NCBI GenBank assembly: GCA_021372575.1
Contig: JAJFUE010000029.1
Span: 22,646 to 86,645 of the forward strand
DNA length: 64,000 nt
Reading direction: 5' to 3'
DNA from: a bacterium
GTDB lineage: Bacteria; Sumerlaeota; Sumerlaeia; MVZB01
The position numbers and the translations under genes were made by a program. Of the stretch, positions 3,170-21,847 are shown one piece after another (positions within the stretch are counted from its first letter, which is position 1; each line of letters opens with the position of its first letter). The notes beneath the pieces are model-generated. The model was not told the origin of the DNA. It worked only from the letters and a program-made list of their open reading frames with translations, and did not search any database.

Positions 3170-3493
3170 TCACATCAACCCCAAATCCAATTTCGCAGCC
3201 TCGCTCATCATGTCCCGGTTCCACGGCGGGTCCCACACGACATCGACGATCGCCTCGGTCACGCCGGGAACCGACTCGGCCATCGACTTCACCTGGATCG
3301 GCAGGTATTCGGCCACGGGGCAGTTCGGCGCGGTGAGCGTCATCTTGATGATCACGCGCCCGTCATCCTGCGGATCGATTTCGTAGATCAGCCCCAAATC
3401 GTAAATATTCACCGGAATTTCCGGATCATAAATCGTCCGCATGGCATTCACGATGCTCTCATGCAGGTCGGGGTTGTCGTTCTGGTATTCCAT
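3170..3493 (-). CDS. sufT: SufT / DUF59 (MIP18-family) Fe-S cluster assembly protein
   Basis: 107 aa. DPEIPVNIYDLGLIYEI…TAPNCPVAEYL motif typical of the DUF59/SufT family. Last gene of the suf operon. Confidence 0.8.
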   Translation of the reverse strand: MEYQNDNPDLHESIVNAMRTIYDPEIPVNIYDLGLIYEIDPQDDGRVIIKMTLTAPNCPVAEYLPIQVKSMAESVPGVTEAIVDVVWDPPWNRDMMSEAAKLDLGLM

Positions 3494-3509
3494 TTCTCAA
3501 TCGCTTCTT

Positions 3510-3552
3510 CGTGCTCGTGCTCGTGCTCGTAATCGTAATCGTAATCGAATCC
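3510..3552. repeat. Hexanucleotide microsatellite (CGTGCT)3(CGTAAT)3-CGAATCC in the sufS-sufT spacer (copy 1 of 2)
   Basis: Direct reading. A 39-nt core identical to 7230..7268. Confidence 0.8.
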
Positions 3553-3582: not shown

Positions 3583-4836
3583 CTACCTCAGCATCTCGAT
3601 GGCCTTCTTCACGGCCCCCGCAAGCACGTCGATCTCCTCGCGCGTGTTGTAGAACGAGAACGACGCCCGCGCTGTTCCCGGCAATCCCAATCGTTCCATC
3701 AGCGGCATCGCGCAGTGGTGGCCCGTCCTGATCGCGACGCCTTCCTGGTCCAGAATCGTCGCGATGTCGGTCGGATGCGTTCCATCCACGACGAACGAGA
3801 CGACGCTCGCCTTGTGCGGCGCCGTGCCGACGATGCGCAGCCCCGGGATCTCGCCCAACCGCGCCGTCGCGTAGTCCAGCAAATCCTGTTCATACGCCGC
3901 GATGTTTTCGATCCCGATCTTGCCCATATAGTCGATCGCCGCGCCGAGCCCGATCGCCCCCGCAATGTCCGGCGTGCCGGCCTCGAACTTGTACGGCACC
4001 ACGTTGAACGTCGTCTTGTCATACGTCACGCGGTCGATCATGTCGCCGCCGCACTGCCACGGCGGCATCTCGTCGAGCAGTTCGCGCCGCCCGTAAAGCG
4101 CGCCGATCCCGCTCGGGCCATAAATCTTGTGCCCGGAAAACACGTAAAAATCGCAGCCGAGCGCCGCAACATCGACCGCCGTGTGCGGCACGGCCTGCGC
4201 GCCGTCGATCAGCACCGGGACGCCGTGCCGATGGCCCATTTCAATCATCTCATGAACCGGGTTGACCGTGCCGAGCACGTTCGAGACGTGCGTCGCGGCG
4301 ATGATGCGCGTCCGCCCGTTGATCATTTTCTCCATTTTGTCCAGGAGCAGCACGCCGCGGTCGTCGATCGGCGCCACGCACAGGCTGGCCCCCTTCCTCG
4401 CGCATAGCATCTGCCACGGCACGATGTTCGCATGGTGTTCCAGCGCGGTGATCAGGACTTCGTCGCCGGCGCCCACGTTCTGCCAGCCCCAGCTCCACAC
4501 GACAAGGTTGATCGCCTCGGTCGCGCCCCGCACGAACACGATCTCGTGCCGGTCCGACGCGCCGAGGAACCGCCGCACCTTCTCGCGCGCGTCGTCGTGC
4601 GCCGCCGTCGCTTCCTGGCTGAGCTCGTGGATGCCGCGATGGATGTTCGAATAACTCTCGAAATAAAACCGGCTGAGCGCCTCGATCACCTGCCGCGGCT
4701 TTTGCGTCGAGGCCGCGTTGTCCAGGTACACGAGCGGCTTGCCGTGAACGCGCTTTTGCAGGATCGGGAAATCGGCGCGGATTTTCTCCACGTCCAAATC
4801 CCACTTGCGCTCGAGTGTCTGCGCCGCCGGGCTCAT
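3583..4836 (-). CDS. sufS: Cysteine desulfurase SufS (class II aminotransferase)
   Basis: The ORF track shows an 813-aa ORF, but the true start is the internal MSPAAQTLERKWDLDVEKIRADFPIL… at 4836 (ATGA overlap with the sufD stop). PLP lysine motif SGHKIYGPSGIGALYG; C-terminal RTGHHCAMPLM active-site Cys loop. Confidence 0.9.
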   Translation of the reverse strand: MSPAAQTLERKWDLDVEKIRADFPILQKRVHGKPLVYLDNAASTQKPRQVIEALSRFYFESYSNIHRGIHELSQEATAAHDDAREKVRRFLGASDRHEIVFVRGATEAINLVVWSWGWQNVGAGDEVLITALEHHANIVPWQMLCARKGASLCVAPIDDRGVLLLDKMEKMINGRTRIIAATHVSNVLGTVNPVHEMIEMGHRHGVPVLIDGAQAVPHTAVDVAALGCDFYVFSGHKIYGPSGIGALYGRRELLDEMPPWQCGGDMIDRVTYDKTTFNVVPYKFEAGTPDIAGAIGLGAAIDYMGKIGIENIAAYEQDLLDYATARLGEIPGLRIVGTAPHKASVVSFVVDGTHPTDIATILDQEGVAIRTGHHCAMPLMERLGLPGTARASFSFYNTREEIDVLAGAVKKAIEMLR

Positions 4837-6185
4837 ATCAATGCCTCCGCCAGCGGATTGTGCGCGTGGAATTTCTCCGAGATGATCCGCCCCAGCTCGT
4901 TCTTCAGCGCCTCGGCGCGCACCTGGTCGAGCACCTCGCCGGCGAACGCGAACGTCAGCAGCGCCCGCGCCTCCTCGAGCCCGATCCCGCGCGAGCGCAG
5001 GTAAAACGCCGCTTCCGAATCCAGCTGCCCGACCGCCGCGCCGTGCGTGCATTTCACGTCGTCGGCGAAAATCTCCAGCTGCGGCTGCGCGTTCACCACC
5101 GCGCTGTCCGACAGGAGCAGCGCCCGGTTCCGCTGATATGCATCCGTTTTCTGCGCGTCCGGCCGCACCACGATCCGGCCCGTGAACACGCCGCTCGCAT
5201 GGTCGTCCAGGATGCCCTTGTACAGTTCGGTGCTGTGGCAGTGCGGCACCGCGTGGTCGAGCCGCGTGTGCGCGTCGGCGTGCTGTGTGCCGGAGATCGC
5301 ATACAGACCGTTCAGCACGGTCTCGGTCCCCTCGCCCGCGAGCGTCACGTTCACGTTCTGCCGCGACAGCGCCCCCCCGATCGCGAACGCGTGCGTGCGC
5401 AGGTTGCTCGACCGCGCCTGCCGCGCGTACATCGAATGCACATGGAACGCGCCGGGGCTCTCGAGCTGGACCTTGTAATGATCGACCTGCGCGTCCTCGC
5501 CGATCGCCATCTCCGTCACGCCGTTCGTCAGATAAACGCCTTCGCCGAGCCCGCCGTAGGTCCCGATGATCGTGATCTGCGCGGCCCGGCCGACGACGGC
5601 CAGGTTGCGCGAGTGGAACGCCAGCGGCTGCGCCCCCGCCGTCGCGAGAAACACCACGTGCATCGGCTTCTCGATCACGCATCCGTCCGGCACGTGCACG
5701 AACACGCCGTTCTGCAGCCATGCGGAATTGAGCGCGGTGAACGGATTCTTCGGGTCCTCGGCGCAGCGCCCCAGGTTCTCGCGAAACACGCGGTCGCCGC
5801 TGCCGATCGCCTCGCCGACCGTCATCAGGCGCACGCCCGCCGGCAGCTCGCCGACATCCGAAATCTCCGGCTGATACACGCCATTCATAAAGACGAACCG
5901 GTGCGCGTCGAGCCCCGGGATGAAATATTTCGCCGCATCGCCCGCGAGCTTGTGATACGTCCGCGCCGGGTCGGGGCTGGCAAACACCGTGTTCTCGAGC
6001 GCCTCCAGGTTCGTGAACCGCCATTCCTCATCCTTGGCCCCCGGCAACCCGAGCGCATTGAACCGGTCCAGCGCCTTCCTGCGCATCGACCTGATCCAAT
6101 CGACATCCGCCCCCATCAGCTGCGGCTCCATCCGCAGATATTCGGCGATGAAGTGATCCTTGGCGCTGCCCGTCGCGATTGCCAT
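4833..6185 (-). CDS. sufD: Fe-S cluster assembly protein SufD
   Basis: 450 aa with SufD/SufB-family beta-helix features (…VHVPDGCVIEKPMHVVFL…IGEDAQVDHYKV…). Lies between sufC and sufS. Confidence 0.85.
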   Translation of the reverse strand: MAIATGSAKDHFIAEYLRMEPQLMGADVDWIRSMRRKALDRFNALGLPGAKDEEWRFTNLEALENTVFASPDPARTYHKLAGDAAKYFIPGLDAHRFVFMNGVYQPEISDVGELPAGVRLMTVGEAIGSGDRVFRENLGRCAEDPKNPFTALNSAWLQNGVFVHVPDGCVIEKPMHVVFLATAGAQPLAFHSRNLAVVGRAAQITIIGTYGGLGEGVYLTNGVTEMAIGEDAQVDHYKVQLESPGAFHVHSMYARQARSSNLRTHAFAIGGALSRQNVNVTLAGEGTETVLNGLYAISGTQHADAHTRLDHAVPHCHSTELYKGILDDHASGVFTGRIVVRPDAQKTDAYQRNRALLLSDSAVVNAQPQLEIFADDVKCTHGAAVGQLDSEAAFYLRSRGIGLEEARALLTFAFAGEVLDQVRAEALKNELGRIISEKFHAHNPLAEALI

Positions 6186-6192
6186 TTGATTA

Positions 6193-6462
6193 AGTCCTGA
6201 GTCCTGAGTGCTGAGTCCTGATTCAATTCAAACAAAAATGCAGTCACGAGATTCACGAAATGAAGACCATGAAATTTCACGAAAATGTTTTCAGAATTCC
6301 TTTATGCCTCTAATTCGAACGCTTGTTCTTTTTCGTGCCTTTTCGTGAGAATTCTTTCGTGACTTTCGTGACTGAGTTTGTATTTGTTTCGCCGTTTCAA
6401 GGCTGTTTCCCGATCGAGACTGCCGGTTCATAAACCTCAGCACTCAGGACTCAGGACTCAGC
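6193..6462. repeat. Palindromic MITE-like intergenic element: about 27-bp terminal inverted repeats (AGTCCTGAGTCCTGAGTGCTGAGTCCTGA / TCAGCACTCAGGACTCAGGACTCAGC) flanking an AT-rich core with TTCGTG / CACGAA motifs
   Basis: Left arm 6193..6221 and right arm 6437..6462 are reverse complements. The core 6222..6436 is much more AT-rich than its surroundings. The right arm supplies the last codons (LSPES*) of sufC. Confidence 0.5.
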
Positions 6463-7211
6463 GCTTCTTCCTCCACCCATCCGTATCCTTCACGCTCCAG
6501 CTCCAGCGCCAGCTCCTTGCCGCCGCTCTTGATCACGCGGCCGTTCACCAGCACGTGCACGAAATCCGGCACGATGTAATTCAGCAACCGCTGGTAGTGC
6601 GTCACGACGACGATCCCGCGATCGCCGCCGCGCAGCGAGTTCACGCCCTCGGCCACGATCCGCAGCGCGTCGATATCCAAGCCCGAATCGGTCTCGTCCA
6701 AAATCGCCAGCTTCGGCTCGAGCACCGCCATCTGGAACACTTCGTTGCGTTTCTTCTCGCCGCCCGAGAATCCCTCGTTCACCGATCTCTTCAACAGGCT
6801 CTCGTCCATCTTGACGAGTTGCATCTTCTCGCGCACGAGCTTCAAAAATTCCTCGCTCGAAATCTCGTCCTCGCCGCGATGTTTCCGCGCCGCGTTCAGC
6901 GCCGACCTCAAAAAATACGTGTTGTTCACGCCCGGGATCTCTACCGGGTATTGGAACGCCAGGAAAATTCCCGCCCGCGCGCGGATTTCAGGTTCCATCT
7001 CGAGCAGGTTCTGGCCGTCATAGACGACCTCGCCCTCGGTGACCGTGTAGGTCTCGCGCCCGGCGAGCACGCCCGCCAGCGTCGATTTCCCCGACCCGTT
7101 CGGTCCCATGATCGCATGCACCTCACCCGGATTGACCACAAGGTCGATCCCCTTGAGAATCTCCCGATCCTCAATCCGCGCGTGCAGATTTTTGATTTCA
7201 AGCAGACTCAT
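6444..7211 (-). CDS. sufC: Fe-S cluster assembly ATPase SufC
   Basis: 255 aa. Walker [13 protein letters not shown] signature FSGGEKKR, Walker [13 protein letters not shown]. Confidence 0.9.
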
Positions 7212-7224
7212 CCGTTTGCTCCAT

Positions 7225-7268
7225 TCGCACTCGTGCTCGTGCTCGTAATCGTAATCGTAATCGAATCC
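7225..7268. repeat. Hexanucleotide microsatellite (CGTGCT)2-3(CGTAAT)3-CGAATCC in the sufB-sufC spacer (copy 2 of 2)
   Basis: The same 39-nt core as 3514..3552. Confidence 0.8.
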
Positions 7269-7302: not shown

Positions 7303-8744
<1,442 letters not shown>

Positions 8745-8748
<4 letters not shown>

Positions 8749-9248
8749 CCGTTCGCTCTCCCCGAAGCCCCCAACGTTGGTTCGGTAGTCTTGTCGATTG
8801 GCATCGATGCGGTCTCGGCCAGCCGGATCAATTCAGGCCCGCGCGTCGGCTGGAACATCTCGGCCAGCGTGATCCCGTCCAGCGCTCCCTGGATCGCCTC
8901 GTTGATCCGGTTCCAGCTGATCCGCAGCGGGCAATGCGTCCCCACCCCGCAGCGCGCCTGATCGGTCAGGCACTCGGTGATCGCGATCGGCCCCTCGAGC
9001 GCCTGGATGATCTCCGAGATACGGATCTGCGAGGCCGGCCGGATCAGCCGGAAGCCCCCCTTCGTCCCGCGGTGCGACGCCAGGATCCCGCCCCGCGCCA
9101 GCGCCTTGAGGATCTTGCTGACCATCGGCAGCGGCAGCCGCGTCAGGCCGGCCAGGTCGCGCGCGTTATGCGTCGTTTCCTGCCCTTGAGTGGCCATCTG
9201 ACAGAGCAGGACGATCGCGTAATCGGTGATTTTGGTCAGGCGAATCAT
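8745..9248 (-). CDS. Rrf2-family transcriptional regulator (IscR/SufR-like); likely regulator of the suf operon
   Basis: 167 aa. N-terminal [19 protein letters not shown] wHTH typical of Rrf2. Three Cys ([14 protein letters not shown]) as an Fe-S ligand candidate. Stop overlaps the sufB start. Confidence 0.8.
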
Positions 9249-11683: not shown

Positions 11684-12170
11684 CTGAAATCCGAAGAAGA
11701 TATCCACCAGAGCGCCGAAGGCGCGAATCATCCCAGCCTGGGGCGCAGCGAAGCGAAGCCCCAGGACGGAAGATCCCATATCTTAAAATGAGCGCTGAAA
11801 GCGCGGCAGAAATATCGATGGTCTCTAATCCCGTATTTTTTTATGCGCCTTGACCTCTGATGTGGTGCTTTTGATGCGTTTTTCTTTTTGGACCGCGAAG
11901 CGGTTCGATCTCCAAGCCCGGTCTCGTCACGATGATCAAGCCCCCATCCTCGTAACCCCGCGATTCATCGCGGGGTCCGCGCAATCCTTTCTTCGGGAAA
12001 CCGTTTCAACGGTTTCCCTTCGCATTGATCCTGTTTGAGACTTTTGAAAAATGTTCCCGCATTCATATCGCCTGAAAATCCGCAAAAATATTTTATTTTT
12101 TTTCAAATTAAGGGTCGTTAAGTTTCCTAAGGGTTCCTAAGGGAATATACAAATCAAAACATTTTGGTTT

Positions 12171-12854
12171 ATGCTCGCGACCGACCTCGGGAACGCCCGA
12201 GTCACAGAGCTTTCGGCAGAATCAACGAACATGCCAGCCGCCACCGACATCTCCAACCTCGTCTCCGGCGCCGATTCCGCCGAGCGTCTTCTGCTGGCAT
12301 GCCTTAAAACCGCGGAAACGAATGGCACGACGTTCTCCACGCTCGACAAAATGGTCACCACGCTCGCCCGCCTGACCGCCATCCGCAAATCATTGATCAA
12401 TCTTTCCGATAGCCCCGAACCCGAATCGCCTGATTCAACAGATCATTCCCATTCATCCCATCATTCCCATTCCCCCGAAAACCCATCAACTACCGATTCC
12501 ATCTGCGAGCCGTCGATACGTGAAGTCCGGGAAATCCCCGCAATGCCCCTCGACCGCATCGCCGGTGAACTCAACCGCATCAACTGTGATCTCACCGAAC
12601 AACTGCAATTCGCACAAATCGTTCGTAGTCCCGCCTTCAGGCGGAACGATCAATTCATCCAATCCGCGCAATCCGCGTTCGGCCCGAATTCCGATCCGCC
12701 CCCATCCGTTCAATCCACGTCATCCAAGTGTGGCCCGAATTCCGATCCGCCCTCATCCGTTCAATCCGCGTCATCCGCGTGTGGCTTGGATTCCGATCCG
12801 TCCCCATCCGTTCAATCCGCGTCATCCGCGTGTGGCTCGGCAGGCTATGCCTAG
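12171..12854 (+). CDS. Hypothetical Ser/Pro-rich protein with three 51-bp tandem repeats (GPNSDPPPSVQS(T/A)SS(K/A)C)x3; contains one copy of the 26-bp palindromic element
   Basis: ORF in the lower-GC patch. Tandem repeat at 12681..12833; palindromic element at 12621..12646, in frame. Confidence 0.35.
   Translation: MLATDLGNARVTELSAESTNMPAATDISNLVSGADSAERLLLACLKTAETNGTTFSTLDKMVTTLARLTAIRKSLINLSDSPEPESPDSTDHSHSSHHSHSPENPSTTDSICEPSIREVREIPAMPLDRIAGELNRINCDLTEQLQFAQIVRSPAFRRNDQFIQSAQSAFGPNSDPPPSVQSTSSKCGPNSDPPSSVQSASSACGLDSDPSPSVQSASSACGSAGYA
12621..12646. repeat. 26-bp palindromic element GTTCGTAGTYCCGCCTTCAGGCGGAA (copy 1 of 4)
   Basis: Stem CCGCC/GGCGG with loop TTCA. The same sequence occurs at 15873..15898, 15919..15944 (inverted) and 16108..16133. 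Confidence 0.8.
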
Positions 12855-14288: not shown

Positions 14289-14578
14289 GGCGCGAACTCG
14301 CGCTCGATTACTGCATCAAAAAACGAACCGGAAGAAAGAATCGAGATCCACGGAACACACGGAATTAGAATTTCTCCGTTTTCTCCGTTTCCTCCTGTTC
14401 AATTCTTCTGTTCAGAAATATTCTCTGCCTCTCTGCCAAACTCTGCTTCTCTGCGACAAAAATCTTTTTCGTGTTTTTTCGTGCTCTTCTTTCGTGTGTT
14501 TCGTGTTTGCATTTTTGGGTTGCGGCTCCGCTGCGCCAAGTATTCAGTGTATTCCGTGGTTCAGAGCGACCTGCTGAC

Positions 14579-15787
14579 CTACTCTTTTCCAAGCACGGTC
14601 TTGATGAACTGGTCGCCTTCGAGGAGGCCGTAGCCGCCCTTGGCGCAGGCGGCTTCGTCGTAGCGCTCGACGGAGTCCGCCTCGATGCCGGGGCTCATGA
14701 TCGCGAACGGCACGTCGCCATGGATGTGCACGCGGCTCTCGACGGGCGTCGGGTGATCCGGCAGGAGCGCCACGACGGCGCGCTCGTGTTTCTTTTCCAG
14801 CTCGCCCAGAATGCGCCCGATCAGCCGTCGATCCAAATCTTCGATCGATTTGATCTTGCGCTCCAAGTTGCCTTCGTGGCTCGCCTCGTCGGGGGCCTCG
14901 ACGTGCAGATAGACAAAATCGTGGTCCTTGAGCGCGTTGAGGCACGCGTCGGCCTTGCCCTCGAAGTTGGTGTTCCACAGGCCGGTCGCGCCTTCGACCT
15001 TGATCACGTCCAGCCCGGCATAGACGCCGATGCCGCGGATGAGATCGACGGCCGAGATGACCGCGCCGGTGACGCCGAAACGGTCCTTGTAAGTCCACAT
15101 CGTCGGCCGGCGGCCCGGCGACCACAGCCAGATGGAATTGGCGGGGTCCTTGCCCTCGGCGCGGCGGCGCTCGTTGAGCGGGTGGTGTTCGAACAGCTCC
15201 CACGAGCGGCGCGTGATGCGGTTGAGCAGCTCGGCCGTGGCCTTCGCCTGTGAGTTCTTCGGCTTGATCATGAGGTCCTCGACGAGTTCGCCGGGGTGGT
15301 CGTGCGGCGGCATGCAGATGAGGTCCGGGCTCAGGCCGTGGCCGACGAACAGGTGCCGGTAATCGACGCCGGTGTAGAAGCTGAGGCCGTGACCGCCGAC
15401 CTCGGCGCGCAGCACGCCGAGCAACTCGTCCGACTCGGCCGAAGTGATGTGGCCCGCCGAGTGGTTCTTGATGCGCTTGTTCTCGATGCACAGGACGTTG
15501 CAGCGCATCGCCATGTCGTCGTCGCCGATCTCGACGCCCATCGACGCGGCCTCGAGCGCGCCGCGCCCGTAGCCGCACGTGCGCGCGTCGAAACCCATCA
15601 CGCCGAGGTTCGCGACCTCGCTGCCGGGAGGAAGATCGGCGGGCACCGTGCGAAACAGTCCGCAGCGCCCCTCGCGCGCGATGCGGTCCATGTTGGGCTT
15701 GTTCGCCACCTGAAGCGGCGTCTTCCCATTGAGCTTCTTGACCGGAACGTCCGCCATCCCGTCGCCGAGGATCACGATGTACTTCAT
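14579..15787 (-). CDS. apgM: 2,3-bisphosphoglycerate-independent phosphoglycerate mutase, archaeal-type (ApgM family)
   Basis: Start MKYIVILGDGMAD (alternative upstream start at 15820). Metal-binding DGMAD, HVEAPDEASHEG and LLPDHPTP motifs typical of cofactor-independent PGM / alkaline phosphatase-superfamily ApgM. Confidence 0.8.
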   Translation of the reverse strand: MKYIVILGDGMADVPVKKLNGKTPLQVANKPNMDRIAREGRCGLFRTVPADLPPGSEVANLGVMGFDARTCGYGRGALEAASMGVEIGDDDMAMRCNVLCIENKRIKNHSAGHITSAESDELLGVLRAEVGGHGLSFYTGVDYRHLFVGHGLSPDLICMPPHDHPGELVEDLMIKPKNSQAKATAELLNRITRRSWELFEHHPLNERRRAEGKDPANSIWLWSPGRRPTMWTYKDRFGVTGAVISAVDLIRGIGVYAGLDVIKVEGATGLWNTNFEGKADACLNALKDHDFVYLHVEAPDEASHEGNLERKIKSIEDLDRRLIGRILGELEKKHERAVVALLPDHPTPVESRVHIHGDVPFAIMSPGIEADSVERYDEAACAKGGYGLLEGDQFIKTVLGKE

Positions 15788-15872
15788 GACGATGCCTTTC
15801 CGAATGGACTGCCTGACCAAGCCATTTTTTCAGGAAACGAGGGAATACGGAATCGAAAAAAGTAACGTAAGG

Positions 15873-15898
15873 TTCGTAGTTCCGCCTTCAGGCGGAAT
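15873..15898. repeat. 26-bp palindromic element (copy 2)
   Basis: GTTCGTAGTTCCGCCTTCAGGCGGAA. Confidence 0.8.
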
Positions 15899-15918
15899 AT
15901 GCACGCCGCTTGGTTATG

Positions 15919-15944
15919 TTCCGCCTGAAGGCGGCACTACCAAC
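15919..15944. repeat. 26-bp palindromic element (copy 3, inverted relative to copy 2); it abuts the stop codon of the sigma54 activator
   Basis: TTCCGCCTGAAGGCGGCACTACCAAC, the reverse complement of the consensus. Copies 2 and 3 form a long inverted pair. Confidence 0.8.
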
Positions 15945-15945
15945 T

Positions 15946-16935
15946 CTATGTTTTAATCTTGTCCTGGTATTTCCTGTAATAACCGCGGAACTGGTGGTAG
16001 GTCAGGCCGAGGCACTCGGCAGCCTGACGCTGGTTGTAGTGGGTGGCCTCGAGCGCCTCGCGCAGCCGCCGCAGCTCGAGCTCGGCAATCTCGTCGGTAA
16101 GGGTAATGTTCGTAGTCCCGCCTTCAGGCGGAACAACAGGGTTGCTCGCGTGATTCGCCCACTCCGACTCGAACGGGTTGAAGATGATGTCGTCGATCGG
16201 CTCGCCGCCGCAGCGATAGACCATGCGCTCGATGACGTTCTTGAGCTCGCGGACGTTGCCCGGCCATTCGTAATCGAGCAGCATCGCCCTCGCGCGCCCG
16301 GTGAGCTCGGGGGCCTTCTCATAGCCCATCTCGGACGCCATGCGGCGCGCGAAGTGCTCGGCGAGGATCGGGATGTCGTCCTTGCGCGCGCGCAGCGGAG
16401 GCAGCGTGATCACCTCGAAGCTGAGGCGGTCCAGCAGGTCCTGGCGGAACTGGCCGTCGCGCGCCATCGCGAGGAGGTCGGCGTGCGTGGCCGCGATCAG
16501 GCGCACGTTGGCGATGATGGGCGTCGAACTGCCGACGCGCTCCATCTGGCCGTACTCGACGACGCGCAGAATTTTCTCCTGGACCGTGGGCGGGATGTTG
16601 GCGACCTCGTCGAGGAACAGGGAGCCGCCATCGGCGATCTCGAAGCGCCCCTTGCGCTGGCGCAGCGCCCCGGTGAACGCGCCGGCCTCGTGGCCGAACA
16701 GCTCGCTCTCGATCAGCGTCGGGCTGAGCGCGGCGCAGTTGAGCGTGACGTAGGGCTGGCTCCAGCGCGTCGAGAGCATGTGCAGGCGCGCGGCGGCGAG
16801 CTCCTTGCCGGTGCCGCGCTCGCCGATAAAAATCACCGGCCGGCTGGTGCGCGCGGCCATCGAAATGCGCTCCTGCAGCTCGAGGAACGCCTCGGACTGG
16901 CCAAGGGCCTGGTTGTCAAGAACCCCGTCGCTCAT
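15946..16935 (-). CDS. Sigma-54-dependent transcriptional activator, AAA+ and HTH domains only (PspF-like, no sensor domain), with an in-frame palindromic-element insertion in the linker
   Basis: 329 aa. Walker A GERGTGKE, GAFTGA loop (…ESELFGHEAGAFTGA…), Walker B, C-terminal HTH (…QRQAAECLGLTYHQFRGYY…). The peptide VVPPEGGTTN is encoded by the 26-bp element at 16108..16133. Confidence 0.8.
   Translation of the reverse strand: MSDGVLDNQALGQSEAFLELQERISMAARTSRPVIFIGERGTGKELAAARLHMLSTRWSQPYVTLNCAALSPTLIESELFGHEAGAFTGALRQRKGRFEIADGGSLFLDEVANIPPTVQEKILRVVEYGQMERVGSSTPIIANVRLIAATHADLLAMARDGQFRQDLLDRLSFEVITLPPLRARKDDIPILAEHFARRMASEMGYEKAPELTGRARAMLLDYEWPGNVRELKNVIERMVYRCGGEPIDDIIFNPFESEWANHASNPVVPPEGGTTNITLTDEIAELELRRLREALEATHYNQRQAAECLGLTYHQFRGYYRKYQDKIKT
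16108..16133. repeat. 26-bp palindromic element (copy 4), in frame inside the sigma54 activator CDS
   Basis: GTTCGTAGTCCCGCCTTCAGGCGGAAC. Confidence 0.8.
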
Positions 16936-17108: not shown

Positions 17109-17184
17109 TGGGGAGTGGTGTAGTTGGTAACACGCCTGACTCTGGATCAGGAGTTCGTAGGTTCGAGTCCTACCTCCCCAGCCA
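17109..17184 (+). tRNA. tRNA-Gln (anticodon CTG), CCA encoded
   Basis: Cloverleaf read by hand. Acceptor TGGGGAG/CTCCCCA, anticodon stem CCTGA/TCAGG with loop CTCTGGA, T-arm GTAGG-TTCGAGT-CCTAC, discriminator G, CCA. Confidence 0.8.
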
Positions 17185-17214: not shown

Positions 17215-17290
17215 GGCGCTATCGTCTAGGGGTCTAGGACGCTGGCCTCTCACGCCGGAAACAGGGGTTCGAATCCCCTTGGCGCTACCA
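17215..17290 (+). tRNA. tRNA-Glu (anticodon CTC), CCA encoded; the integration target of the island
   Basis: Aligns with E. coli tRNA-Glu along its whole length (TCGTCTAG…AGGAC…CTCAC…AACAGGGGTTCGAATCCCCT). Anticodon stem CTGGC/GCCGG, loop CTCTCAC, T-loop TTCGAAT, discriminator A, CCA. The acceptor stem has G1:U72 and U6:G67 wobble pairs. Confidence 0.75.
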
Positions 17291-18974: not shown

Positions 18975-19205
18975 TCACGAAGAAGGTTTCATATCCAGGT
19001 GACTATACCGAGAAATCATCTCGATTGTGGAATGACCGAGGAGTTGCGCTACGCTGTATATGGGAGTTCCATTCATGACGAGATGTGAGTCATAGGCGTG
19101 TCTGAGGTCATGGACACGCACATTAGGCAAACCTGCATATTTCAGACTTTTTGAATTTGGTGCGGAAGTTTGTATCTTCACCATAGACTGCCTCTCCCGG
19201 TTCAC
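18975..19205 (-). pseudogene. C-terminal fragment of a tyrosine recombinase (remnant)
   Basis: The 76-aa ORF encodes only …VHDLRHAYDSHLVMNGTPIYSVAQLLGHSTIEMISRYSHL, the box II catalytic region, with no N-terminal domains. Confidence 0.5.
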
Positions 19206-19237
19206 CTTTTGCCATGCCCGCGAACAAAGTTCCAGGG

Positions 19238-21847
19238 TTAATCTTGAGCCTTTTGTTGCAGAAAATCAGACAACTCTTTCTTCACAAGTACTGGCATATC
19301 CACATCGCGCCATGTTTCTTGTTTTATCCAATCAAGACATTCTTCTTTTGTCAGTGAATCATTCGCAATTAAAGATGATATTTCTAGAGTCGTTGTTCGC
19401 GACAAGCCCATAGCAACCAATGCAAGTTGGGTTTTCTGTGAAACACCAAATTCCAACATATTGCTTATCTCTGGTATCTCAATGACAAGGTCTTGGCGTT
19501 CTTTACTACGGTAGAATAGATTTAGCATATCAATGTAGCATGCGAAATATTTGGGGGCTTCAAAGCGAGCATATTGTTCAACATCTTTCATTACATCCCG
19601 TATTACTTTGGCAACATGTTCCGGATGGCTCTTGAGCCGTTTGGATATCAGGACAGCCAACGGCATACCTCTCATCCAGAGAAGAATCAGATATGATATT
19701 TGGTAAATACGTTTTTCTGAAGGACCGAACGTGTTTGACAGGAATTCGTTAATAATTTTTATAATCCTTGCGTATACATCATACGCATCTCGACTTTCAG
19801 GCATTACAGGCTGCAATTGCGTTATGTCACCAGAATACGATTCGAAATACTTGACCAGATTTTCCATCGCATACGGACTGATGCCAGGGTGTTTTATAAT
19901 CATATTTTCAGGTATCGCAATCTTATTATGCGCTTCATCTATAAGCTCACTTAATAACTGAACTTTTTCAGGATTGATTCGTTTTGCCCACGGAGCTTTC
20001 TCGATTGACCCATACCGTGTTTTGTTCCACATTAGATACGATAATAAATAATCATATTCAGGTTTTTGACGAGCTATATTCCTTGGAGTTCTTTCATTCA
20101 CATAGGATATAAAATCATGTGCATCATTCATTATTCTGTCACTTGATCTCTCGATCATATACTTCTCTCTTATGCGTGGCGCACCACCCTCCCATACGTT
20201 TTCCTCTCTTGCGTCTATACAAAATATGTTTCCTTGGAATTCTTTTCCCCATCTTCCTGCTCGACCGGCTAGATTCCAAAAGTCCGCCGCACTCATTATG
20301 TTTCCATTGCCACGCTTAGGACCGCGCACAAAGATGTTTTTACAAGGAAGATTTACACCCTCCAGCAATGTAGATGTTGTGAATAAATACTTAATAACAT
20401 TCTTTACAAATAACCTCTCGATATTCATGCGTATTAGCAATGGCATATTGCCATAATGAAAAGCTATACCTTTTCTTAATACCGTTGCCAACAAGTAATG
20501 TTCATGTATAGTCTTTTGTACCAACTCAATCAATTCCCTCAACTCTCCATCAAGTTCCATTTCAGGCATAAGGTCGTACAACACGAATGATTCCTTTTCG
20601 GCGACCGCCGCCCCATTAACATAAATGAGATTGCCACCATCTGAACTTCCCAACCTTTCCGCAATAAAGGGGACCTTCTTCATTACACCGACCGGGCGAA
20701 ACAACAATTCGATAGTTCCCAGTGGCAACTCGCATTCTTGCACACATAATTCAAGCTTATATATTTTGGAATTGCGTGGTATTTGCGATATCCATATTAG
20801 ATTCTGGTTTACTGTAATTTGTTCGCTTGGAATTGATTTATTATTATCTTGCCTGGGTGCATCCTCAAAGAATATTTCTGGGTTTTGGGTGAGTGGGCTT
20901 GCAAATATGATCTTAATTTGCTCATTGATGGCACAACAATAGTCTAACACCTGTTGCAAAAGAGTCCCGCGATACCCATCACTAATCTTATGAGCTTCAT
21001 CAACGATGATTAGGTCTATTGTTCGATCCCTGAGTTCCATCAAAAGCAAATGAAGTCTCTCTTGGGTTAGAATGAACACATTGTGTTTACTGTTCGACAG
21101 TTCCACATTTAAGGGCATCTGGGAAATGATGACATTGGCAGATAAACCATTATCCTTCACCATAGCAAGACAATCCGATTCTACCTGTGTAATTAACGCA
21201 CGCGTCGGAACCACATAAACAGCACACATCATCCTATCGGATTTGCTGATTCGATCCATCAACCAATTTAACAATATATAGGATTTACCTGATGATGTCG
21301 GAGCCGATACGCTGAGCCAATCAATTTGCTCGGCTTCTTTCCACACCGATAATTGTAGGTCATTTAACGTAAGTACATTTCCATTTGCCATACCCACAGT
21401 ATGCTCAATGTTGTTATGTATCCATTCACAAGCAAGTCCCAGAGGAAGACGCCTTTCAAGATTCGTTTCCAAATAGCATCGATGAACTGCCAGATTAATT
21501 GCTGGGTAGTTCGCAAGTCTTTGCAATATAATCGCTGCTGTTTCCTTTTGTATTTTGGATGTATTCTCGTCAATCATGCAGGCTTGGGCTATCCGCAAAG
21601 CTGCATCCTGTTGTGATTCTTTATTAGATTGACACAAAATGCTGGCGCAAAATAATAAATATTTCCAGTCATGCTCGATCTCATACACGTTCTTTGTTAG
21701 ATTGGGGAACTGCGACATAACGGATTTAGCGGTCAGAAACGATAGCCGTTGCCGAAAATCCGTATTGTTCAATATCCATTCTTGTATTTTAACTAACCCC
21801 ATTTCCCCCCTCCAATTCTCTGCGAAACGATGTTCTAAAATCATCAA
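19238..21847 (-). CDS. Superfamily 2 DExH-box helicase, HamB-like (putative Hachiman helicase component)
   Basis: 869 aa. Motif I SAPTSSGKS, motif II VDEAH, motif V-like TSTLLEGVNLP, motif VI LAGRAGRWG. Sits immediately downstream of, and overlapping, a 340-aa partner gene, in an AT-rich island. Confidence 0.65.
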   Translation of the reverse strand: MMILEHRFAENWRGEMGLVKIQEWILNNTDFRQRLSFLTAKSVMSQFPNLTKNVYEIEHDWKYLLFCASILCQSNKESQQDAALRIAQACMIDENTSKIQKETAAIILQRLANYPAINLAVHRCYLETNLERRLPLGLACEWIHNNIEHTVGMANGNVLTLNDLQLSVWKEAEQIDWLSVSAPTSSGKSYILLNWLMDRISKSDRMMCAVYVVPTRALITQVESDCLAMVKDNGLSANVIISQMPLNVELSNSKHNVFILTQERLHLLLMELRDRTIDLIIVDEAHKISDGYRGTLLQQVLDYCCAINEQIKIIFASPLTQNPEIFFEDAPRQDNNKSIPSEQITVNQNLIWISQIPRNSKIYKLELCVQECELPLGTIELLFRPVGVMKKVPFIAERLGSSDGGNLIYVNGAAVAEKESFVLYDLMPEMELDGELRELIELVQKTIHEHYLLATVLRKGIAFHYGNMPLLIRMNIERLFVKNVIKYLFTTSTLLEGVNLPCKNIFVRGPKRGNGNIMSAADFWNLAGRAGRWGKEFQGNIFCIDAREENVWEGGAPRIREKYMIERSSDRIMNDAHDFISYVNERTPRNIARQKPEYDYLLSYLMWNKTRYGSIEKAPWAKRINPEKVQLLSELIDEAHNKIAIPENMIIKHPGISPYAMENLVKYFESYSGDITQLQPVMPESRDAYDVYARIIKIINEFLSNTFGPSEKRIYQISYLILLWMRGMPLAVLISKRLKSHPEHVAKVIRDVMKDVEQYARFEAPKYFACYIDMLNLFYRSKERQDLVIEIPEISNMLEFGVSQKTQLALVAMGLSRTTTLEISSLIANDSLTKEECLDWIKQETWRDVDMPVLVKKELSDFLQQKAQD

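Follow-up and report, generated by a model that had tools for sequence, protein, structure and literature searches.

In the suf operon of a bacterium of the Sumerlaeota (GTDB lineage Sumerlaeia, MVZB01; assembly GCA_021372575.1, contig JAJFUE010000029.1, positions 22,646 to 86,645), the genes sufC and sufD are separated by a 258-nt spacer which contains tandem repeats arranged as two nested pairs of inverted arms. The whole stretch analyzed, 64,000 nucleotides in length, is referred to here as the window. The spacer is interpreted as an ancestral, repeat-built intercistronic hairpin that was elaborated in this lineage and acts on the suf mRNA, an interpretation to which a probability of about one half is assigned when taken as a whole. 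Its structural and evolutionary description is very probably correct; the proposed function in translational coupling and mRNA stability is put forward tentatively. Judged by sequence comparison, the inner hairpin is descended from a stem-loop located between sufC and sufD in the common ancestor of a Sumerlaeia clade, the outer stem with its mirrored (AGTCCTG)4 arrays is a novelty of the window lineage, and the inner hairpin belongs to a widespread class of intergenic arrays which often occur as inverted pairs, lack target-site duplications and are conserved in their arms alone. The simplest history would be a single gain of the hairpin followed, in the lineage of the window, by the expansion of mirrored heptamers and the addition of about 50 nt of unpaired sequence.

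The features of the junction are the following (window coordinates; both genes are encoded on the minus strand):

4833-6185, minus strand: sufD, 450 aa, with the ATG at 6183-6185; Pfam domains PF01458 and PF19295
6186-6443, minus strand: sufC-sufD intercistronic spacer, 258 nt (from the sequence and the list of open reading frames, ORFs)
6192-6221: sufD-side outer arm (3' arm on the mRNA), with tandem heptamers AGTCCTG x4.1 at 6193-6221
6194-6198, minus strand: Shine-Dalgarno-like AGGAC, 8 nt upstream of the sufD ATG, paired within the predicted 25-bp outer stem
6229-6285: sufD-side inner arm, CACGAG/CACGAA on the plus strand, UUUCGUG-type units on the mRNA (3' inner arm)
6286-6329: apical hairpin region, not conserved among relatives
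6330-6386: sufC-side inner arm, TTTCGTG x4 on the plus strand (6331, 6341, 6355 and 6364), CACGAAA x4 on the mRNA (5' inner arm)
6387-6435: asymmetric segment of 49 nt on the sufC side, between the inner and outer stems, without a partner on the sufD side
6437-6466: sufC-side outer arm (5' arm on the mRNA), in the 3' end of sufC, with CTCAGGA x3.7 at 6436-6461
6444-7211, minus strand: sufC, 255 aa (ORF list), C-terminus ...EEEALSPES, with the final five codons (LSPES) and the TGA stop at 6444-6446 inside the outer repeat arm

The outer inverted repeat comprises 23 nt of full complementarity (6193-6215/6436-6458) and can be extended to 30 nt at 87% complementarity (6192-6221/6437-6466), with 215 nt between the extended arms. 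Allowing up to three mismatches, the heptamer arm occurs at these two sites only in the 64-kb window (chance expectation 0.00 in 100 shuffles). The enclosed core has a GC content of 0.385 (6201-6400), against about 0.60-0.65 for the flanking genes, and contains the inner inverted repeat, which is 57 nt long and 72% complementary (6229-6285/6330-6386). Folding of the mRNA (minus) strand predicts one hairpin of ~280 nt with a free energy of -108.3 kcal/mol, compared to -76.8 +/- 4.4 for shuffled sequences (z = -7.2). In the predicted minimum-free-energy structure the 3' arm of the 25-bp outer stem corresponds to 6191-6215, the stem ends 5 nt before the sufD AUG, and the sufC stop codon lies in the arm opposite to AGGAC. 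A variant unit, GTGCTGA, is mirrored exactly across both outer arms. The sufD-proximal heptamer arm, including the GCAC variant unit, is reproduced in an independent Logan assembly (L329), the contig of which begins inside the array; thus, the outer arm is no artefact of a single assembly. A preliminary description of the window had reported inverted repeats of about 27 bp around an AT-rich palindromic core, and had proposed that the right arm encodes the LSPES tail and the stop codon of SufC and that a very long stem could form in the polycistronic mRNA. The repeats are real, with a perfect arm of 23 nt instead of about 27; the palindromic core and the coding overlap are borne out by the sequence and the long stem is predicted by folding.

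The proteins encoded on both sides are readily assigned. SufD of the window is 100% identical to a protein (P0001) named 'Fe-S cluster assembly protein SufD'. The NCBIfam SufC models TIGR01978 and NF007134 cover residues 3-249 only, so the SufC tail is an extension, and an exact protein look-up with the window SufC gave no match on record. Rfam 15 covariance models returned noise alone for the spacer at E <= 10, and a search of the window likewise gave nothing relevant to the spacer.

The junction of relatives carries the evolutionary part of the argument. The nearest named relative of the window SufD belongs to Candidatus Sumerlaeia (80% identical), and a hairpin built of CACGAA(A/U)...(A/U)UUCGUG units occurs at the sufC-sufD junction in all five further genomes fetched, whose SufD proteins share 79% (L081), 73% (L084), 70% (L083), 67% (L206) and 54% (L205) identity with that of the window; a second contig, L082, has a junction identical to that of L081. 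The 142-nt spacer of L081 shows CACGAAA x4 ... TTTCGTG x4, the arms in L083, L084 and L206 consist of three units each, within spacers of 58-59 nt, and the units of L205 read CACGAAT ... ATTCGTG. These hairpins fold better than shuffled sequences (z = -3.8 to -6.6), with stems made of 7-8-bp helices broken by 2x2 loops. By inspection, the strings GGAAUUCUGAAAACAUUUUCGUG and GUUUGAAUU are common to the inner arm of the window (6330-6386) and the junction hairpin of L081, which identifies the inner hairpin of the window as homologous to those of its relatives. The heptamer arms were found at none of the five junctions, and no further copy was detected in 206 fetched loci. Two outgroups, L327 (SufD 51% identical) and L328 (49%), have array-free spacers of 45 and 12 nt, respectively. 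Among 78 suf loci the commonest arrangement, as estimated, is a 4-nt overlap of sufC and sufD, and a spacing longer than the 258 nt of the window was found in two loci only. A genome scan based on SufC retrieved distant lineages only (at most 76% identity) and served as a negative control, not for finding relatives.

The C-terminus of SufC follows the repeats. In L083, L084 and L206 the entire 5' arm is translated as the SufC tail (GHETHEIREKT, SHKMHEIHEKI and GHEKHEIHEKI, respectively, each followed by the stop codon). As the preliminary description had anticipated for the LSPES tail, these ends are lineage-specific: relatives finish in EETREAEI, ...GHETHEIREKT or ...GHEKHEIHEKI, and 78 other SufC proteins end otherwise. 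Changes in the units are matched in both arms (CACGAAU/AUUCGUG in L205 and CCACAAAA/UUUUGUGG in L084), and among the equally long junctions of L083, L084 and L206 nucleotide identity is 81-85%, compared to 70-75% at four-fold degenerate sites of sufD. The matched changes and the conservation of the junction would fit either selection for pairing or self-homogenization of the palindrome, and the sequences do not separate the two. Arrays of this kind are concentrated in the clade, with several in ~114 kb of Sumerlaeia sequence and none, even of two units, in ~640 kb from 80 unrelated suf loci; five arrays were observed, against a mean of 0.035 in shuffled windows. A second CACGAAT/ATTCGTG hairpin was observed at the sufS-sufT junction of L205 (8635-8707), the most distant member of the clade, indicating more than one acquisition of such elements by the suf operon. 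In L081 (12620-12660) and L083 (3015-3050), purine-rich octamer repeats (GGCAGAGA-like) are also placed directly upstream of the start codon of the sufT-like gene.

Beyond Sumerlaeia, a scan of metagenome contigs for three TTTCGTG units, with gaps of 1-8 nt allowed, returned at least 120 stretches, and a scan of IMG/VR viral contigs at least 120 more, the latter including ordinary perfect tandem repeats of other periods. Among the matches listed, to which the counts in this paragraph refer, the canonical array consists of three [T/A]T[T/C]CGTG units with a period of 9 nt and a G after the last unit. Exactly three units are present in 140 of 209 arrays; the 9-nt period dominates in the metagenome matches, within a family range of 8 to 10 nt, and 87% of arrays have the G after their last unit, usually as GTT or GAC. 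Inverted pairs are oriented as CACGAAA..TTTCGTG in 47 cases, mostly with loops of 11-30 nt, and in the opposite sense in 14. None of these features (the count of exactly three, the 9-nt period, the terminal G and the inverted partner) was demanded by the search pattern. Elements lie between tandem (45), convergent (12) or divergent (5) genes, and their outer CC or GG end tends to sit near a stop or start codon; arms are conserved across members of the family and loops are not, and in 30 canonical metagenome pairs the palindrome reaches 2 nt past the units. The flanking genes are housekeeping genes, encoding for example Era, RibF, MoaE and radical SAM enzymes. On viral contigs the canonical array occurs mostly as a singlet, and the CCACGAAA sense tends to follow stop codons (18/35 vs 8/35).

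Source names of proteins linked to four of these loci point to Desulfobacterium/Desulforapulum, an unclassified deltaproteobacterium, Gemmatimonadales and Gallionella. No gene family is common to the array neighborhoods in about 120 loci and no transposase is linked to them; Rfam covariance models gave no match on 20 loci with canonical hairpins, and a literature search by sequence string retrieved primers only. The family of which the preliminary description suspected a small version is therefore far larger, with at least 120 stretches in metagenomes alone. Two further observations concern this family. Small genes of the GxxExxY type (TIGR04256, PD-(D/E)XK-like) lie between or beside CACGAAA/TTTCGTG arrays in the metagenome loci L144 (2714-3208), L189 (1602-2196), L160 (3-261) and L190 (4081-4650), and in L189 the array-gene-array unit is placed between an ABC ATPase gene and the next gene; array-GxxExxY-array could be a cargo-carrying form of the element. 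The viral contig L212 contains four copies (5100-5140, 5676-5700 and two further sites) of a conserved unit of ~90 nt, in which a canonical three-unit array is followed by a CAGGG...CCCTG hairpin, adjoining small genes of the helix-turn-helix type.

A second compound element of the same class occurs in the window itself:

14345-14562: second compound element, between the 3' end of apgM (14579-15820, minus strand) and a convergent ORF

Its outer inverted arrays, GATCCACGGAACACACGGAAT (14345-14365) and ATTCAGTGTATTCCGTGGTTC (14542-14562), are 21 nt long and 86% complementary, reading CCACGGAA... and ...TTCCGTGG, and they enclose TTTCTCCGT x2.8 (14371-14395), TCTCTGCC x3.9 (14422-14454) and TTTCGTG x4 (14467-14505). 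At the syntenic position of L081 (3482-3587) a CACGAAA x4...TTTCGTG x3 hairpin surrounds a GC-stem/T-run terminator (z = -11.5). The preliminary description had recognized this patch, at 14.3-14.6 kb, as related to the sufC-sufD spacer and had placed it upstream of apgM; the relationship holds, with four TTTCGTG units, and the position is downstream of the gene. The octamer unit found upstream of the sufT-like start in L081 and L083 recurs as TCTCTGCC inside this element. At 12443-12836, in the stretch that separates a 548-aa ORF from apgM, tandem repeats are clustered; among them are a 51-nt unit x3.5 (12660-12836, 87% matches) and a unit of 21 nt x2.7. The counterparts of this ORF and of apgM in L081 are just ~300 nt apart.

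With these elements in hand, a mechanism can be proposed for the sufC-sufD junction. The element would be co-transcribed with the suf genes, and the resulting RNA stem-loop would bring the sufC end and the sufD start together. In this genome only, the 25-bp outer stem would pair the last codons and the stop of sufC with the Shine-Dalgarno sequence of sufD, and a ribosome terminating on sufC would melt the stem, exposing the sufD ribosome-binding site. A 4-nt overlap is the usual arrangement for translational coupling, and melting of the stem may restore here the coupling that most lineages obtain from such an overlap. The hairpin probably serves also as a barrier to exonucleases, like repetitive extragenic palindromic (REP) elements. 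As for its origin, the outer stem probably arose by repeat slippage together with palindrome-templated copying, because the GTGCTGA variant is mirrored exactly in both arms.

Several results weigh against this proposal. The hairpins of the five relatives stop just short of the sufD ribosome-binding site and leave it unmasked, with a modeled probability of being unpaired of 0.5-0.7 whether or not a ribosome occupies the sufC stop, so masking cannot be the conserved role; in the window the modeled accessibility of the site rises just from 0.36 to 0.48 on unmasking. There is no clear RNA-strand signature, as G-U pairs number 28 in the sense and 18 in the antisense strand, with little difference in how well the two fold. 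For the family as a whole, dinucleotide spacers between units are complementary in 58% of cases vs 49% in shuffles (shuffle maximum 65%), which is not beyond chance, and solo arrays have no overall strand bias relative to genes (13 vs 11). Chance-level pairing of spacers and the lack of strand bias suggest recognition of the heptamer or a process at the DNA level, and not RNA pairing alone. A REP-like role in stability, or no role at all, is equally plausible as coupling.

Absence of a role is the core of a rival account, in which a selfish or neutral repeat, similar to a miniature inverted-repeat transposable element (MITE) or to a hairpin-forming REP doublet (REPIN), was acquired by an ancestor in the 3' tail of sufC, a part free of constraint, has no role in suf expression and persists because the SufC tail is dispensable and the arms are homogenized by template switching, the heptamer stem being a later microsatellite expansion. 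All of the following would be expected of such a repeat: arrays of this kind lie beside numerous unrelated housekeeping genes, in many different lineages as well as on viral contigs; the SufC tail varied in each of the lineages compared; arms and not loops are conserved; no RNA-strand bias is evident; and the number of units and the length of the spacer (about 59 to 258 nt) vary among relatives. Nevertheless, the element has been kept at one junction down to 54% SufD identity, the pairing of its arms survived compensatory changes of the units, and the conservation of the junction exceeds that of four-fold degenerate sites; moreover, there is no target-site duplication and no linked transposase, the sole REP-type Y1 gene seen (in L081) having a different flanking repeat. 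This account is somewhat unlikely. It is improbable that the arrays are instead duplex-DNA sites for an abundant sequence-specific protein (nucleoid-associated, of the IHF/HU or ribbon-helix-helix type) and that the hairpin is incidental. The conservation of the heptamer next to spacers that are neither conserved nor complementary, the usual presence of exactly three units, the occurrence of both relative orientations in pairs and the unbiased strand of solo arrays are in line with protein binding, and paired MTYCTGA x5 and TCTCCGTS[Y] x3 arrays were read as binding sites of global regulators by Aklujkar et al. (2009; PMC2700814). However, a period ranging from 8 to 10 nt poorly fits a fixed phasing on the duplex, units change compensatorily in both arms, arrays follow stops or lie inside operons and are rare between divergent genes, where regulators usually act, and no candidate protein was identified.

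The two remaining alternatives concern the transcript and the spacer as such. Cleavage by RNase III, or by another endonuclease, could split the suf transcript into sufBC and sufDS-sufT halves of differing stability. The 25-bp perfect stem of the window would suit it, Correia and enterobacterial repetitive intergenic consensus (ERIC) elements are processed likewise, and in six of six genomes the sufD ribosome-binding site follows closely after the 3' base of the hairpin, so that the cleaved product could keep a 5' stem. Such a site is nonetheless very improbable, given that the 5' arm of L083, L084 and L206 is wholly sufC coding sequence, where cleavage would leave a sufC mRNA without stop codon, and that the 7-8-bp helices with 2x2 loops of the relatives are poor substrates for RNase III. 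A small gene, an internal promoter, or an intrinsic terminator or attenuator within the spacer can hardly be the explanation, even though a promoter might in principle reside in the AT-rich core, a GC-stem/T-run terminator is enclosed by the L081 element downstream of apgM, and the spacer is overlapped by two short ORFs (46 and 50 aa). A scan of both strands of 6186-6443 for terminators and sigma-70-like promoters gave no site, the stem has no U-tract after it, no Rfam family matches, and the ORFs are translations of the repeats which cannot be conserved given the different spacer lengths of the relatives; they were dismissed on these grounds.

The element was also compared with recognized classes of repeats. 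The preliminary description had called the element a MITE-like insertion. Terminal inverted repeats are indeed present (23 nt perfect, 30 nt at 87%); inspection of the window flanks (...TTGATTA / CTTCCTC...) showed no target-site duplication, and in 30 canonical metagenome pairs direct flank matches numbered 3, 0 and 1 for k = 2, 3 and 4, close to the shuffled controls (0.4, 0.2 and 0.1). Copies with the whole interior were not found, the heptamer arm being confined to a single locus in 64 kb of this genome and 206 loci, nor was an autonomous partner, no gene family being common beside the arrays in about 120 loci. A recent MITE insertion was rejected for lack of target-site duplication, conserved interior and autonomous partner, and genome specificity is contradicted by the inner hairpin at the same junction in five other genomes. 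The same description had named as contrary evidence relatives that share the SufC ending without flanking inverted repeats, together with a genome free of other core copies; neither was encountered, as the tails of the relatives differ, all of them have inverted repeats, and copies of the core motif exist elsewhere.

The extragenic location, the occurrence as singlets and inverted doublets and the lack of target-site duplication agree with REP/REPIN elements. A unit palindrome headed by GT(A/G)G is missing from the arrays, which are built of nonamers in direct tandem and resemble it only in their outer-end CGTGG. A link to a REP-associated tyrosine transposase (RAYT) was rejected, since the window has no Y1 homolog and the Y1 gene of L081 is flanked by a different repeat, GTAGCTGTCACCGAA. 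That gene (15697-16540) scores 64.8 bits on NF047646 (cut-off 80), below the RAYT threshold; its 22-nt flanking inverted repeats contain GTAGCTGTCACCGAA, with a third copy at 20210, and the locus looks like a separate, classical REP/RAYT system of the relative, absent from the window. Many metagenome arrays, among the matches listed, end in GTTAAAT or GTTAAAA, reminiscent of the RYYYAAC/GTTRRRY core sites of integron attC sites; an attC reading was rejected, given that the arrays flank housekeeping genes and that those of Sumerlaeia end in GGC and not GTT. The arrangement described for paired sites of Geobacter metallireducens, with 3-5 tandem units of 7-9 nt in inverted, intergenic pairs, is found in the window at 6193-6221/6436-6461 and at 6229-6386.

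The remaining genes of the suf operon, all on the minus strand, are listed below:

8745-9248, minus strand: Rrf2 regulator gene, first in the suf operon (ORF list and synteny with L081)
7303-8748, minus strand: sufB
about 3583-4836, minus strand: sufS
3170-3493, minus strand: sufT-like gene, last in the order of the operon (synteny with L081)

Two direct copies of a hexamer-repeat element, GGATTC(GATTAC)3(GAGCAC)3GA in the minus-strand sense, are located at 3509-3551 and 7230-7267, 15-25 nt upstream of the starts of the sufT-like gene and of sufC. The element is also present at the sufB-sufC junction of L081 (9050-9083), has no inverted partner, and may be a leader or translation-related element. 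Elsewhere in the window, a match to the Rfam Acido-Lenti-1 RNA, barely exceeding the threshold, lies on the minus strand at 11711-11765 (39.7 bits, gathering score 37), in a host outside the phyla after which the motif is named; two adjacent tRNA genes lie on the plus strand (17109-17181 and 17215-17287), and a stretch of at least 900 nt at about 19100-20000 with a GC content of 0.39-0.41 (window mean 0.58) may be foreign DNA, a structural RNA or a repeat region.

The junction illustrates how a normally overlapping pair of genes tolerates a 258-nt insert that is predicted to fold back, donates the tail and stop codon of SufC and may hide the next ribosome-binding site. The more interesting question is what reads or spreads CGTG-type arrays across phyla, as a stereotyped array, in which three CGTG-containing units are spaced every 9 nt and a G follows the last, recurs in several phyla and in viral contigs and is absent from Rfam. 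One possibility, speculative and unlikely on the present comparisons, is that the [T/A]T[T/C]CGTG nonamer and NNNCTGA heptamer arrays are cis-elements of one undescribed cross-phylum system, in which a conserved factor reads the heptamer and either mobilizes the arrays or uses them as punctuation of gene boundaries; a nuclease, an HUH-type enzyme and the GxxExxY PD-(D/E)XK cassettes would be candidates. A single system would explain why the unit, its threefold repetition and the G at the end are shared by Sumerlaeia, by Desulfobacterium-, Gallionella- and Gemmatimonadales-linked contigs and by viral contigs. If one factor reads the arrays, they would offer a new handle, in uncultured lineages, on regulation within operons or on a mobile system of the REP kind; if there is no such factor, they would provide a clear example of microsatellite-built palindromes persisting within essential operons.

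Among known systems, REP, bacterial interspersed mosaic and REPIN elements of Proteobacteria are also extragenic and often intercistronic, occur as singlets and hairpin-forming inverted doublets without target-site duplication, are conserved in their arms alone, and are enriched at gene 3' ends and seldom lie between divergent genes; in its genomic behavior the array family is most similar to REP/REPIN elements. REP elements stabilize upstream mRNA and affect translation when located near a stop codon. The array units differ from them in being tandem direct repeats and not small palindromes, no linked RAYT was found, and one heptamer is shared among several phyla and viral contigs, while each REP sequence is confined to a species. 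The Correia (Neisseria) and ERIC (enterobacteria) MITEs are likewise non-coding elements of 100-300 bp with terminal inverted repeats which occur within operons and form long RNA hairpins, and they can supply stop codons or alter mRNA stability. In contrast, the element of the window has no target-site duplication, conserved interior or second copy of its terminal repeat, and is vertically inherited. In the MS2 coat-replicase and Escherichia coli rpmI-rplT pairs the upstream cistron pairs with the downstream ribosome-binding site and so sequesters it, and translation of that cistron frees the site; the predicted geometry of the window would be the same, a purely inferred resemblance which is not conserved in relatives and has a small modeled effect.

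The closest counterparts at the level of the units were described in Geobacter metallireducens, for which the curated annotation lists intergenic pairs on opposite strands at variable distance, of GTTGCTYN x4 (class 1), TCTCCGTS[Y] x3 (class 2) and MTYCTGA x5 (class 3), one class 3 pair lying between proB and proA, i.e., within an operon; they were proposed to be binding sites for unidentified global regulators, possibly IHF/HU proteins (PMC2700814). Going by the consensus sequences given there, MTYCTGA (CTCCTGA/ATTCTGA) is matched by the window GTCCTGA at 6 of 7 positions, and class 2 is like the TTTCTCCGT array of the window, which contains TCTCCGT, and the TTCCGTG arrays, TTTCGTG being similar and not identical. 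The Geobacter arms, from another phylum, alternate unit types, while those of the window are perfectly complementary, nest two repeat classes and overlap coding sequence on one side and a ribosome-binding site on the other. Further families of direct repeats of 6-42 nt occupy 12% of the intergenic regions of G. bemidjiensis (PMC2996986). Direct repeats of the heptamer TAACTGA precede start codons in Beggiatoaceae, Cyanobacteria and Bacteroidetes, with a suggested role in translation (MacGregor, 2015; PMC4679880), and the BOGUAY genome has 169 direct sets and one indirect repeat (PMC4679880). Such repeats, the cyanobacterial heptamers of the short tandemly repeated repetitive (STRR) type and long simple sequence repeats of 5-11 nt (Mrazek, 2007, as cited in PMC4679880) are, like the present arrays, short intergenic tandem runs, often by start codons, patchily distributed across phyla and without known transfer mechanism; these kinds are described as direct only, whereas the arrays of the window are mirrored into a hairpin whose position is conserved among relatives. 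The class to which the sufC-sufD hairpin belongs is thus that of widespread and poorly understood paired tandem-repeat arrays, the only similar descriptions found being the curated lists of Geobacter genome repeats and the TAACTGA report.

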